Origin: Heterodontus francisci
Lineage: Eukaryota
Reading direction: 5' to 3'
Assembly (NCBI RefSeq): GCF_036365525.1
Contig: NC_090380.1
Span: 82,345,658 to 82,409,657 of the forward strand
Length of the DNA: 64,000 nucleotides
The notes under the pieces were generated by a model. That model saw only the letters and a program-made list of their open reading frames with translations. It did not search any database and was not told the DNA's origin. Below, in pieces: positions 51,681 to 58,444 of this stretch. The translations under genes and the position numbers were made by a program. How positions within the stretch are numbered: the first letter of the stretch is position 1; every line of letters begins with the position of its first letter.

Positions 51681-52969
51681 GATCAATCACAATTGATAGT
51701 AATGCCATTGAATGTCAAGGGGAGATGGTCAGATTCTCTCTTGTTGGAGATGGTGGTTGCCTGGCACTTGTGTGGAGCAAATGTTACTTGCCACTTATCA
51801 GCTCAAGCCTGTATATTGTCCAGCTCATGCTGCATTTCTACATGGACTGCTTCTGCATCTGAGGAGTCACGAATGGTGCTGAACATTGTGCAATCATCAG
51901 CGAACATCCCCACTTCTGACCTTATGATTGAAGGAAGGTCATTGATGAAGCAGCTGAAGATGGTTGGGCCTAGGACACTACCCTGAGGTACTCCTGCAGT
52001 GATGTCCTGGAGCTCAGATGATTGACCTCCAACAACCACAACCATCTTCCTTTGCATTAGGTATGACTCCAAACAGTGGAGAGTTTTCCCCCTGATTCCC
52101 ATTGATTTCAGTTTTGCGAGGGCTCCTTGATGCCATACTTGGTCAAATGCTGCCTTGATGTCAAGGGCAGCCACTCTCACTTCACCTCTTGAGTTCAGTT
52201 CTTATGGCAATGTTTGAACCAAGACTGTAATGAGGTCAGGAGCTGAGTGGCCCTGGCGGAACCCAAACTGATCGCCATTGAGCAGGTTATTGCTAAGCAA
52301 GTGCCGCTTGATGGCACTGTTGATGACACCTTCCATTACTTTACTGATGATCGAGAGTAGACTGATGGGGCAGTAATTGACTCGGTTGGACTTGTCCTGC
52401 TTTTTGTGTACAGAACATACCTGGGCAATTTTCCACATTGCCGGGTAGATGCCAGTGTTGTAACTGTACTGGAACAGCTTGGCGAGGGGTGTGGCAAATT
52501 CTGGAGCACAGGTATTCAGTACTATTGCCGGAATATTGTTAGGGCCCATAGCTTTTGCAGTATCCAGTGCCTCCAGTCATTTCCTGATATCACGCGGAGT
52601 GAATCGAATTGGCTGAAGTCTGGCATCTGTTTCCTTGCCCATGTTTGACTTGATGCCATGAGAATTCATGGGGTCCAGAGTTGATGTTGAGGACTCCCAG
52701 GGCAACTCTTATTTTTTTCCACAAAAATATACTTTATTCATAAAAAATCTGTAAAAAATACATTCCAACGCAGTTCAAAACAGCACCGAGTTGACATTCC
52801 AAAACGTGCAAAGGAAATCAGTTTTCTTAATACAGGAGTGAGTTGCCTCACAACCCTTCCATTTCAATTTACATGCCATGTACATTTTACAGCAAACCCA
52901 TATCTGGTGTCTGCAGCCTGAGGGGTTTCCCATGGGTCCAGCCCCTCAGTTCACTATGGTGGGAGGAAC

Positions 52970-55814
52970 TTACACGGTGGTCTTTCCCCATTGAGCATTT
53001 GCGGCGGCTGCCCCAAGCTTTAGTACGTCCATCAGCACATAGTCCTGGATCTTGGAATGTGCCAGTCTGCAACACTCGGACGTGGACAGCTCTTTGCGGT
53101 GGAAGACCAGCAAGTTTCGGGCAGACCAAAGAGTATCTTTCACCGAATTGATGGTCCTCCAGCAGCAGTTGATGTTTATCTTGGTGTGTGTCCCTGGGAA
53201 CAGCCCATAGAGCACAGACTCCTTTGTTACAGATCTGCTTGGGATGAACCTCAACAAAACCACTGCATCTCCTTCCACACCTGCTTTGCAAAGACACATT
53301 CCAGAAGGAGGTGGGCAACCATCTCTTGCCCACCACAGCCACCTCAAAGGCAGTGTGTGGAGGGGGTGAGACTCCAGGTGTGCAGGAAGGATCTGATGGG
53401 GAGGGCTCTTCTCACCACCTGCCAAACTACGTCTTGGTGCTTGTTTGAAAATTCTGGTGATGAGGCTCGGGGAACCATCCGACAGGATCCACCATCTCCT
53501 TTTCCTGTAGGGCCTTGAGGACATTCCCTGTAGTCCACTGCCTGATGGATTGGTGGTCAAAGGTGCTTTTCCACAATATGGGTGGTACGGCATGGTCCAA
53601 CTGGATGGAGCGTTCTGCGGCAATGTGACCAGACCCATCCTTCGCAACATCGGGGACAGTTCCCAAAGAACATGGCCTCACTCTTGCCGTGGTTAACTTT
53701 GGATCCTGATGCCAGTTCGAACTGGTCGCAGATGCTCATCAGTCTGCGAACGGACAGCGGATCCGAGCAGAAGACAGCGACATCATCCATGTACAGGGAG
53801 GCTTTGATCTGAATACCTCCGCTGCCTGGGATTGTCACCACTCTCATGCTCACATCCTTCCGAATAGAGTCTGCAAACAAACAAGACAGAGGAGAGAGGA
53901 CAGCCCTGTCTGACTCCAGATTGGATTGGGAAATTCTCTGATTCCCACGCATTGATTGAGACTGTGCTACTGATGTTTGTGTAGAGCAGTTTGATCCAAC
54001 AGCGGATTCCATCCCCAAACCTCATTTTGGAGAGCACGTCTATCATGTAGGTGTGCGATATCCTGTCAAAAGCCTTCTGGTCCAAGCTGATAAGGCAGGT
54101 GTCCACCCTCCTGTCCCGTACGTAGGTGATCATATCCCTGAGTAGCGCAAGACTATCAGAGATCTTTCTGCCAGGTACAGTACAGGTCTGGTCAGGATGA
54201 ATGACACGACTGGCGATAACTTTGGACAGAATCTTGTAATCAACATTAAGCAGTGAGATGGGCAGCCAATTTCTGATTTCTGCCCTCTCCCCCTTCTGCT
54301 TGTAGATGAGGGTGATGATGCCTTTCCTCATGGATTCTGACATGCTGCCGGTCAGAGGCATACTCTCGTATATGTCCAGCAGGTCTGGGCCAATCCAGTC
54401 CCACAGAGCCTAATACAACTCAACTGGTAAGCCGTCGCTTCCGGGAGTTTTACTCGTCTCGAAGGACCTGACAGCATTTGTCAGCTGGTCCAGAGTTAGC
54501 GATTTGTCCAGTTTCTTCCGCATGTTGTCATCTAAGACCTCCGTGATAGATGACAGGAAGGCCCTTAAGGCCGTGCTGTTTGTGGGCTTCACATCGTACA
54601 GCTCAGCATAAAAGGATTTGCTGATCCTTAGTATGTCAGACTGCAAAGACGTTAACGAGCCATCCTCTTCCTTCAGGCTGCTGATCACAGAGCTCTCTCT
54701 GTGTACCTTTTGGAAGAAGTAACGCGAGCATCCTGCTCAATGGAGCGAACTCTGGATCGGTAGATGATCTTGGAGGCCTCTGTGGCAAAGAGCGAGGCCT
54801 GCTGGCTCTTCACCTCTTGGAGATCCTCCTTGATCGCAACCCCCATCGACTGCAGCCGGAGCAGATTCTGCATTCTATTCTGGAGTCGGGACATTTCCCT
54901 CTGTCTCTCTCTCACCTTCTGAATACCTTTGAGGATAAAGAATCTCTTGATGTTCTGCTTGATCGCTTCCCACCAGTGGACTGGAGACTCAAAGAGGGGT
55001 TTCACGGTTCTCCAACCTTTGTAATCCCTTTTGAGTTCCTCAAGGTTCTGTGGGGTTAGCAGTGTAACATTGAGCTTCCATATCCCCCTGCCAACCCGCT
55101 GATCGTGCTGTAAGTAACAGTCGGCCAGTAAGAGGCAATCGTCAGAGATGAACACCGGCTTGACGTCGGTGACAGCATGGGACACAAACAGGAAGTCAAT
55201 CCTGGAACGGGCAGACCCGTCCGATCTTGACCAGGTGTCTCTACGCTGTGCTCCGCCTGCTGGTTTGCTGACATTTGCAGGTCGTGCAGCTTGGCATCTT
55301 TTAGTGTTTCCGTTAGGAATCTGGATATCGCGTCCAATTTGCTGTCATTACTTCCGGATCATCCAGCTGCATTGATGATGCAGTTGAAGTCACCGCCTAG
55401 AATGACCGGCGTGGACGATGCCAGCAGCAGTGGGAGCTGCTGGAAGACGGTCAGCCGCTCACTGCATTGAACCGGGGCGTACAGGTTGATCAACTGGAGC
55501 AGAGCATTGTCGTACATTACATCTGCTACGAGGAGGTGATCACCCACCACCTCCTTAACTTCGGAGGTGGTGAAGTTGCCTCCCTGCAGCAGAATACCCA
55601 GGCCGGAGGAACGGGAATCATTACCCCCTGACCAGATCAATGGCCCATGGGACCACCATCGCAACCATTGCCTGTAGGTGCTGAGGTGGGGAATTCCACA
55701 CTCCTGCAGAAACAGTAGGTCGGCTTTGATCTTGGCGAGGTAGTCCAAGGTCAAAACACATTGTGTAGTAGATTTAACGCTAAGCATGTTAATCGAAGCA
55801 ATCTTTATACCAAT
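52970..55814 (-). pseudogene. Tx1 ORF2: APE endonuclease, RT and C-terminal zinc-binding region; fragmented, with internal deletions
   Basis: IKIASIN, ADLLFLQECG, INLYAP, ILGGDFNC, SDDCLL, KTPGSDGLPVELY, NWLPISLLNVDYKILSK, SGVRQGCPLS, SLYMDDV. Confidence 0.92.
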
Positions 55815-57355
55815 TTTAAAGTTGGGTGTTGCACACCAGTTGTCCTTGCTGGTCCCAGTTCTTGGGTATGTTCTTGCATACCCATAGTGTGCACAAGCTG
55901 TTTCACATTCGTTGGGCTCAGAAACCCCTCCTGGTTACTCATGGGGGGTTTGTTCCACTGGGGGTGACATTGCGGGGGGGGCTTGTAAGCAGCAAGGCTT
56001 GGGCTGTCCTCTGCTGTTGGTGTCTTTCTCCTCTGTTCCTCCTCAAAGACATCACTGCTCCCGGCTTCCCGGAGCTGGAGTGCGCCTGACGCTTCTTTGC
56101 TCTTGGTGTCCCGGAACTGGGATGCGCTGGGCATCTCGCTGGGTTCGGCGCTTTGGGTTTGGGGCGTGCTGAGCCCATCACAGCTTCCAGTGCCCGGGGA
56201 CTGGGGGGCTTTCTCTTCCAGCTCCTTTGAGTTCTGCCGCTTCTTTTGCAGGTGCAATCGTTCCGGCCCTTCCTTGTCCAATGAGGAGGAGCTGCCATAG
56301 TCCGTCTAAGACGGTAGCCTCCTCTTGCCACTGGTTTGGGTAGTGGCCTGTTCCTTTTTTGGAGGTTTTTCCTTTGTGATTTTCCTTTTTAACCACTTGC
56401 CACTGACCAGTTTGTCCATCTGCTGCCTCCTCCTCCATTGATTCTGTCTGTAGAGGAGGGGTTTCCGGGCACAGGGTAGGTGTTGGGTCGCTGGTTGCAT
56501 CTGCCTCCCCTTTGTTCTCCTTCTCAGATAGACTTTCCTCGCTGTGGAGAGGGTTGTTTGTCTCCTTCCCAGCACCAGATGCATTCACCGTTCCTTCTCC
56601 CAGCCTTTCCTTGGACCTTGCCGCCTGAGCATAACTGAGGCAATATTTGGGGAAGGTAGAGGTGGCCTGCCTCACCACACAGGTCGCAGCACTTACTCTG
56701 CTTACAGTCCTTGGTCTGATGGCTTTCCTTCATGGAGACGACTGTGCTGCAGTTGGCTGCCATGTGACCAGATTTGCCACAGATCCGACAAACTCTGGGC
56801 TGCCCTGCAGAGACCAAGAAGCCTGGACTTCTCCCAATAGCCAAGCTGGAGGGGGGATGGATGATGGCTCCATTGGCATTGACCTTCAAGGTCACCTTGA
56901 CCTGCCGCTTGCTGGTCCAAATCCCAAATGGGTCCTTGACATCAGTGCTGCTGCCGGCCCCCTCAACGTACCTGGCGAGGAAGGTGAGTACATCCACGAC
57001 AGGAACATGAGGGTTGTAGAGGTGGCTTGTCACCACCTGGTCATGTTGCGACATCAGAGTGAAGAGCAGCTCCACTGTGAGGATGGACAGCAGCGCCTGG
57101 TTTCCCTTTCTCCTTGAACACTTTCAGGAACTTGATGCATCCCGCCACGTTCTTGAACGTCTCGTCGAAATATCCACTGCCGGGGAAGTCCTGCAGGCAG
57201 AAGGTGTCTGCAGCTTGGAATCCACAGCAATTGATAAGGATTTTCTTGATGAAGAAGGTATGGTACACAGGTGCACCTCCTTCCTTATCCTTTACCACCA
57301 CCCGAACAGTGTTATGCACTCCTTAGCCTGAAGCTCTAGAATTGGTTACAGCCAT
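55815..57355 (-). pseudogene. Tx1 ORF1: gag-like CCHC zinc-knuckle protein (ZCCHC3-like), disrupted
   Basis: ATG at 57355. MAVTNSRASG*GVHNTVRVVV..FCLQDFPGSGYFD, DPFGIWTSKRQ, CRICGKSGHMAANC, CDLCGEAGHLY, then a low-complexity tail. Confidence 0.88.
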
Positions 57356-57393
57356 TTTACTCAAGACCTACCTGGAACAAGATCAAAGGCCAC

Positions 57394-57425
57394 TGATCAT
57401 GGTTTCTTCCCCTGCCAGGTAAGTA
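57394..57425 (-). ncRNA. U1 snRNA 5' fragment (about nt 2-32) forming the head of the Tx1 element; not a functional snRNA gene
   Basis: TACTTACCTGGCAGGGGAAGAAACCATGATCA versus human U1 (A)TACTTACCTGGCAGGGGAGATACCATGATCA: one insertion and one substitution. Confidence 0.93.
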
Positions 57426-57487
57426 ACTCCCTGTGCAACTCCCTCCCGACTGTGTACCACTGTCCTGCTGGTGGGGGGACAGGTTCT

Positions 57488-57682
57488 GCCGTGGGATCTT
57501 TTATGTCCACCTGATAGGGCAAATAAGGCCTCAGTTCAATATCGCATCCAAAAGACACTGCCTCCAACAGCACAGCATTCCCTCAGTACTACACTGGACT
57601 GTCAGCCTTGATTTTTGTGCATGAGTCCTGAAATGGGTCTTCTGACTCAAAGTTGAGAATGCAATCAAATGAGCCACAGCTG
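57488..57682 (-). mobile_element. Deu-domain SINE (SacSINE1-like) head and body fragment
   Basis: GGGATCTTTTATGTCCACCTGA...CATCCAAAAGAC...CCCTCAGTACTACACTGGA.TGTCAGCC. Confidence 0.65.
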
Positions 57683-58444
57683 ATGTGATGTATTTTAGAT
57701 CACAGTATCAATCCACCAACTGTGAATGACCCAATTTTAAATGATTGAAAATGACTTTTAATAAATTTGCAAAACATTTTTCTCGTTAGATGGGGGTACA
57801 GTAGTCAGTTCCTTAGTAACTTAAAAAGTTATTATTTAAAACCTTTCATAATGTACCTATTAGTGCCCTTGTGCTTAATATTTGGAGCTTCCCCAAATGG
57901 CTGCAGACAAATGCAATTAGCGGAAACTCTCGATGGTGATTAATTCACCCTGGGGTTATGGCCTGCTTCTAATGCAATGTCTTTAATACTAACCTAAAAG
58001 ATCACAGAAACTCAAATTGTGTTGAATGCAATTTGTGCTTTAAATTCTACAAACTTTTGTGCCGGTTACGCCAATATCGGGGGACATGCACTGAAGAAAA
58101 GAGCACAATCGAGTAGAAACTCCAGGCCGTAATCTTTGCAATGTCACATTAAGCAGCTGTCTTAAAAAGGCACTGTCTTTATGAAAAAATGTTCTGCAAA
58201 CTAATTTTGTTTGGGTTGAACAGTAACAACAACACCTAGGGTAGGTTCAAATTGAAGCAACTCTCCTGACGCTTATGTGTGGGGAACTCAGTTTGAATAC
58301 AATCCATTTATATGTTCGTTGTCTCCATTGTTATTCCTGCATTTTCTTACCTGCTGAATGCAGATAAATTCAAGCAGAAATTTTTTTTTGGTCATGGGCG
58401 TGAGTGTCACTGCCAAGGCTGACATTTGTTTCTCATCCCTAATT

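Follow-up and report, generated by a model that had tools for sequence, protein, structure and literature searches.

The closest described counterparts of the element reported here are the crocodilian Tx1-Mar retrotransposons, of which Tx1-2_Crp, Tx1-2B_Crp and Tx1-4_AMi begin with a U1-derived head and Tx1-11_Crp with a U2-derived one, together with the SINEU elements of the same study (Kojima 2015, PMC4494074). In the available part of that paper the heads are attributed to template switching, and how the U1- and U2-headed elements acquired their heads and are transcribed is left open. Insertion into the snRNA gene itself is described for U2, whose sequence resumes at nt 39 after Utopia and forms the same 3' flank in Keno; as far as the accessible text goes, the work concerned (PMC4640811, from 2015) names only the DNA transposon Dada-U1 as targeting U1. 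A host sequence at the 5' end of the RNA is likewise reported, in the available portions of two papers (PMC3774820, PMC11331408), for R2, which is co-transcribed with 28S rRNA and is proposed to use that sequence for annealing at the target, with uniform 5' junctions as the outcome. Our literature search, covering few subscription papers, returned no Tx1 element inserted in U1 and no fold-back leader.

The window analysed in this study, a stretch of 64,000 nucleotides from Heterodontus francisci, contains an element that can be compared with all of these systems. Based on the evidence set out below, we consider it probable that this element is a dead copy of a LINE that inserts into U1 and U2 genes, that its U1 head came from the host gene by way of the snRNA promoter, and that its leader, as predicted, forms a cover likely kept by selection.

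The window element and its leader

The copy lies on the minus strand from 57425 to about 52712. It is a decayed, dispersed Tx1/Keno-like LINE, an ordinary dead insertion, assigned to subfamily A1 of the family described below. Its parts are as follows.

57426..57441, minus strand: 5' copy of the target-site duplication (TSD), 16 bp, 14/16 identical to the 3' copy; not snRNA sequence
57390..57425, minus strand: U1-derived head, U1 nt 2-32 followed by GTGG, which is U1 nt 38-41
57415..57424, minus strand: U1 nt 3-12, which recognises the 5' splice site; forms the 5' arm in the predicted fold-back helix
57385..57407, minus strand: shortened U1 stem-loop I, predicted to form the inner stem by AGA/TTT and CCAT/GTGG pairing
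57378..57382, minus strand: TCTTG (TCCTG in the family), predicted partner of U1 nt 13-17, common to the long-UTR ancestor B
57366..57375, minus strand: anti-U1 10-mer and donor-like motif, predicted to be occluded in the hairpin
55820..57355, minus strand: decayed ORF1 with ZCCHC3-like RNA-binding domains and zinc knuckles; 3' boundary approximate
52970..55815, minus strand: decayed ORF2, matched by a reverse transcriptase fragment; 5' boundary approximate
52712..52969, minus strand: 3' UTR with AATAAA at 52738-52733 and a short A tail
52693..52708, minus strand: 3' copy of the TSD

The 5' TSD is free of snRNA sequence, and the insertion is therefore a dispersed one. Domain searches matched PF23058 and PF00098 in the ORF1 fragment and RVT_1 in ORF2, which is without some 460 bp that young copies have; the young relative L320 gives PF23057, PF23058 and PF00098 in ORF1 and Exo_endo_phos, RVT_1 and zf-RVT in ORF2. 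The traits of Tx1-type elements (an ORF1 with RNA-binding and CCHC domains, an ORF2 with AP-type endonuclease and reverse transcriptase, an A tail and a TSD) are thus all found, the clade name itself resting on this domain layout and on the label given in an earlier, sequence-only reading of the locus. Compared with the genome's own U1 genes, the head of the window copy has one extra A, one G>A change and a stem-loop I whose loop is 5 nt shorter. The full-length U1 fold behind a promoter that marks a functional U1 snRNA gene is not present in the element, and Rfam returned nothing at gathering score for the whole window, U1 included, with four chance-level matches only in 57000-57900. Just upstream of the element, the window holds a SINE-like segment (57490-57680, minus strand) which may be a shark DeuSINE/SacSINE-type domain.

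The sequence-only reading had noticed that ACTTACCTGG (57424-57415) can pair with CCAGGTAGGT (57375-57366) on the minus strand and that the resulting hairpin would end 10 nt before the ATG (57355). Both sequences and the distance were confirmed, and the 10-bp match is real. In the predicted fold the helix has pair probabilities of 0.84-1.0 and is extended by five further pairs between 57414-57410 and 57382-57378. The stem of GATCA and TGATC that had been placed inside it receives an ensemble probability of only 0.006-0.007, its position being taken by the shortened U1 stem-loop I. By the same fold, the suggestion that the 10-mer replaces a missing half of stem-loop I has to be given up: a shortened stem-loop I is still there, and the partner of the 10-mer is nt 3-12. 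The companion suggestion, that the element masks its own U1 splice-site-binding end, survives as a predicted structure, one that the lineage appears to have rebuilt repeatedly. When the U1 head was held fixed and the rest of the leader shuffled, 2 of 300 sequences masked nt 3-12 equally and 1 of 300 reached an equal duplex; against shuffles of the whole sequence the fold energy is unremarkable (z -1.26, 22/200). A stall of the reverse transcriptase at the hairpin base was considered and rejected, only 3 of 30 ORF1-anchored copies ending at leader nt 46-63.

Subfamilies and insertions in U1 and U2 genes

The genome has true U1 genes and contains 159 exact matches to the 18-nt head. Ninety copies from the first 100 listed of these matches were inspected; nearly all belong to one LINE clade with related ORF1, and the flanks of the dispersed copies look diverse. 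A 5' end derived from U1 or U2 is common to the family, as in the snRNA-headed Tx1 elements. A tree of 14 subfamily consensus sequences, drawn by leader type from 155 of 211 copies and joined by five hand-picked C copies, with D set as outgroup and 6 of 11 inner branches starred, gives the ladder D, C, B, A0/A1, A2/A1c/A3b, A3a, A4, s1, s2-s4, in which several consensus sequences were built from 2-5 copies each. The median divergence of copies is 8.1% in D, 10.5% in C, 5.8% in B, 4.5-4.7% in A0/A1, 3.2-3.3% in A3a/A4, 1.8% in s3 and 0.5% in s4. Following A4, the lineage gained a U2 head ahead of its U1 head. The 1745 genomic matches include U2 gene arrays and do not represent a copy number; all 30 sampled on C1-C2 belong to this lineage.

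Heads of other kinds occur beside the main series. Two family D copies (L289, L290) begin with a shorter U2 head ending near nt 35, and the GTAAGT conserved in family D, located at that junction, may be what is left of an even older U2 head. Several subfamilies are preceded by a variant U1 head in which an A-run replaces the loop of stem-loop I (L231, L240, L222, L114, L295). Separate U2 additions whose junction, near U2 nt 44, precedes that of the s-lineage are seen in a B copy (L108) and an A4 copy (L236), and L093 has U1 nt 1-18 and a short spacer before a U2-headed copy, which represents another round of head addition.

The U1 start together with its upstream flank has 36 matches in the genome, 35 of which lie in U1 clusters; 33 of these are listed as intact genes, and 2 of the 35 promoter-flanked loci are interrupted by the present lineage. 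The first interrupted locus reads promoter, U1 1-55, full-length s4 copy, A tail, U1 38-55, second full-length copy, A tail, and U1 from nt 40.

L320:361-6301 and L322:1-5056 (G000:C41:6047560 onward): tandem full-length young copies in a U1 gene with intact upstream sequence

The first of the two copies has open frames of 520 and 1136 aa, counted from stop to stop, and a leader composed of a fresh U1 head, then a U2 head, then the old U1 remnant. The second locus (L321) reads promoter, U1 1-56, a 244-bp 3' end of the element, A tail, and U1 from nt 40. In addition, an old truncated copy, a 1.2-kb fragment, runs into decayed U1 at nt 41. An old truncated insertion at U1 nt 41 (L324:8039-9355, repeated in L306-L313) is now within a repeat unit of about 23 kb, together with one U1 gene and one U2 gene.

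Within the U2 arrays, the tails of s4 copies lead into nt 35-39, and the 5' junctions come after nt 53-55. The 3' junctions of this youngest lineage are at nt 39 (L318), the position known from Keno, at nt 38 (L324, L326) and at nt 35 (L325), and one U2 site holds a tandem stack. Duplications at the insertions in U1 nt 38-41 and U2 nt 35-39 measure 15-18 bp. Strict specificity for U2 genes is not observed, given the U1-gene insertions and hundreds of dispersed copies. At L324:183-5503 the remainder of a U2 gene follows a full-length young copy whose own U2 head begins at nt 12; no match to U2 upstream sequence was found in front of this copy, and its start is either an upstream deletion or a truncated junction. 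The U2 genes at G000:C41:6.77-7.50 Mb (L314-L319, L325, L326) form a 577-bp tandem array whose upstream sequence is unlike that of the U2 genes at 21.6-22.0 Mb, hence two U2 locus types.

The heads are likely to derive from insertion followed by read-through from the snRNA promoter, because young copies sit in U1 and U2 genes and the head ends match the TSD: the family D head ends at about U1 nt 56 and that of the s-lineage at U2 nt 53, which are the far ends of the duplications. A copy inside an snRNA gene would be transcribed from that gene's promoter and so carry the gene's 5' part. Its re-insertion would then add a new head, or would renew an old one by annealing as a homology arm, as proposed for R2. 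The U1 head in the window is likely such a host-gene part, left in front of an insertion. Four of the 90 dispersed heads have the native U1 loop; they fit the promoter route or template switching, and the latter may be a second source of heads. Among the fetched loci, no copy of the window's own subfamily was found in an snRNA gene and no full-length copy behind a U2 promoter; BLAST of the U1 and U2 upstream sequences against the dispersed loci gave no match.

History of the predicted cover

The 10-mer opposite the U1 end had been expected to be present in the family consensus and to be conserved relative to neighbouring leader bases. It is present, but it is not conserved. In the window's subfamily it is the majority state (284 of 290 aligned bases in 29 copies; neighbouring leader bases 0.97-0.99); across subfamilies it is not kept, its changes exceeding those of its neighbours. 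The 10-mer is therefore understood as a temporary solution of subfamilies A0/A1 and no fixed motif. Ancestor B has the same U1 head and a UTR of about 200 nt, with a pre-ATG segment, CCAGGAAAGC, that is without GT and lies about 120 nt further down. Subfamily A originated by a deletion between two CCTG words which put this segment beside the head. The segment already formed 8 of 10 pairs with U1 nt 3-12, and two substitutions, both within the 10-mer and both gaining pairs, brought it to 10/10 in A0 (simulated P 0.0024); A1 has one G-U. As the donor-like GT is younger than the head, the idea that U1 snRNP bound at this site supplied the head fails: the head was already in place in B, whose segment had no GT. 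A derivation of the CCAGG core from U1 nt 47-51 was tried and rejected, fitting family D and not A, whose core traces to the pre-ATG segment of B.

Later subfamilies have GTATGC, CTGGG or a 5-nt deletion at the place of the 10-mer. Among 49 A-type leaders, changes in the core take the form of G-U wobbles, at two pairs and in 10 and 12 copies; the pair at U1 nt 3 is broken in 15 copies and that at nt 5 in 17. A covariation test on the same leaders found no pair changed on both sides and a score not above the shuffle control (451/500), partly because the search pattern had fixed the head.

What recurs in the predicted folds is masking of U1 nt 3-12. In D it is provided by GTAAGT and GGC (P 0.98, 0/300 shuffles), in B by TCCTG-CAGGT (P 0.79, 34/300 shuffles, not significant alone) and in A0/A1 by the 10-mer (P 0.98, 2-3/300 shuffles). 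The consensus of the five divergent C copies is unmasked (P 0.01). Masking is weaker in later subfamilies with U1 heads, at 0.79 in A2, 0.77 and 0.67 in A3 and 0.44 in A4, where 110/300 shuffles are as high; 85 exact matches to CTGGG leaders show that amplification continued despite this weakening.

The old U1 end was unchanged until the U2 head came, and then acquired substitutions at A3, C8, C9, G12, C13 and A14 (U1 numbering). These six changes among 13 positions, of which four gain a pair, two turn a pair into G-U and none breaks one, raised the pairing of the old U1 end with U2 nt 25-38 from 10 to 13 of 13. Duplex energies along the series are -4.9 (hypothetical join), -7.9, -9.1, -11.6 and finally -9.9 kcal/mol. 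When equal numbers of substitutions were placed at random, 13 pairs were reached at simulated P 3e-5 to 9e-4, and the rate of 6/13 exceeds the 0.12 at ORF1 third positions (P 0.003 for s4, 0.03 for s3), in tests that were chosen after the alignment was seen and on a U1 end already at 10/13 against U2. In the same U2-headed lineage, the former partner no longer pairs with the U1 remnant and the donor GT is gone. Taken as modelled, the series suggests that the recurring trait is the cover, with different strands pairing to the U1 end in three stages. The leader would fold back over the splice-site-binding end of its head as a likely selected cover, rebuilt more than once by the lineage, and its purpose would be that a long capped RNA neither acts as U1 or U2 snRNA nor is treated as such. 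We put forward tentatively, as somewhat short of an even chance, the broader reading that a LINE hijacking snRNA promoters must disarm the intron-recognition sequence at its 5' end by a new antisense cover after each change of head. Within that reading, the U1 splice-site-binding end was covered at the stage of the window copy, and the U2 branch-point-binding region is covered today, by the discarded U1 end.

Selection may also have acted on the fold-back only as a generic stable 5' structure, serving RNA protection or completion of the 5' junction, with the heads originating as above. The same changes would be expected if any stable leader were selected, since the U1 and U2 fragments are single-stranded nowhere but in the covered stretches; of 30 ORF1-anchored copies, 26 extend to head nt 14 or beyond it in the 5' direction. 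For R2 templates, insertion was improved by a thermodynamically stable 5' module, according to the available part of PMC11331408. The helix of the U2 stage, however, lies over U2 nt 25-38, where the branch point is recognised, rather than over the first nucleotides. A strong cap-proximal hairpin 10 nt before the ATG is, moreover, expected to hinder translation, here of ORF1, and we judge this explanation rather unlikely.

Less probable still is a purely mutational origin of the complementarity, in which template switching during reverse transcription perfects near-palindromes and selection has no part. The leaders are rich in microhomology deletions and duplications, and amplification went on while pairing decayed in A2-A4, both as this explanation would have it. 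Copying of the opposite arm would not be expected, however, to turn Watson-Crick pairs into G-U, as two of the six changes in the U1 remnant do; the snRNA arm is invariant, only the partner changing, and the changes came stepwise over s1-s4.

The motif may finally be read as a working 5' splice site, which either recruits cellular U1, for supply of the head or protection of the transcript, or acts as a self-paired donor of the spliced-leader type. Self-paired donors of spliced-leader RNAs have been proposed to work without U1 (PMC4041458, citing Bruzik et al., in the accessible text). Within the first 600 nt of one A1 copy no site matches U1 better than the motif (-12.1 kcal/mol, with -9.3 kcal/mol at the second-best site), A0 has a perfect CAG|GTAAGT, and in family D GTAAGT stands at 0.93 against flanks of 0.74 and 0.65, a figure from 19 rows that is biased because they were anchored on the motif. 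The search for spliced retrocopies used the 17 nt that precede the donor, which have 276 exact matches. All 23 copies without GT were read and none is joined to a downstream acceptor: 22 continue as the element with point changes or small indels, and one (L147) runs into another repeat. The 30 copies read of the 253 with GT are all unspliced. With a motif younger than the head, predicted to be occluded in A0/A1 (P unpaired ≤0.01 at 8/9 positions), present in B as a weak donor-like site only and deprived of its GT in the youngest lineage, use of the 10-mer as a splice donor is unlikely from the sequences, and this whole explanation very improbable.

Comparison with known systems

Our study bears on the two points left open for U1- and U2-headed elements. 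If the proposed reading is true, the lineage would be a non-LTR element that uses a fixed U1-gene site, and the promoter route would explain transcription of the snRNA-headed Tx1 and SINEU elements. If the cover is selected, it would be a natural RNA structure kept through complete turnover of both strands, and would bear on the question of what has to be hidden in a long capped RNA transcribed from an snRNA promoter; recurrence of a similar cover after the switch to a U2 head suggests, on the modelled folds, that such elements hide borrowed splicing signals. As the complete series is present in this genome, down to young copies behind intact U1 promoters, the question of head origin and transcription is directly testable here.

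Several traits have parallels in systems already described, the comparison resting throughout on the available parts of the papers cited. With spliced-leader RNA (PMC4041458) the window element shares a short leader followed by a donor-like site paired in cis, but no spliced product is seen among the genomic copies read and the youngest lineage has lost the GT. With R2 (PMC3774820, PMC11331408) it shares host-gene sequence at the RNA 5' end and a structured 5' module; R2 frees its 5' end by an HDV-like ribozyme, whereas the window gave no Rfam match and the element's 5' end is the snRNA start. Like Keno, the lineage is an APE-type two-ORF element with a 3' junction at or near U2 nt 39 and tandem stacking (PMC4640811, PMC4494074), a likeness that rests on published descriptions; unlike Keno, it also inserts at U1 nt 38-41 and is mostly dispersed. 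Like Tx1-Mar and SINEU (PMC4494074), it is a Tx1-type LINE with U1- and U2-derived 5' ends, recurrent addition of heads before old heads and no internal promoter identified; unlike in that account, whose available text mentions neither a fold-back nor insertion in U1 genes, copies are found here inside U1 and U2 genes and the complementary strand has been rebuilt. U1- and U2-headed Tx1 elements with serial head addition (PMC4494074) and the U2 targeting of Keno and Utopia are thus already published; added here are the link of the window family to a lineage inserting in U1 and U2 genes, an account of how the 10-mer arose and decayed, and the predicted anti-U2 cover built anew.
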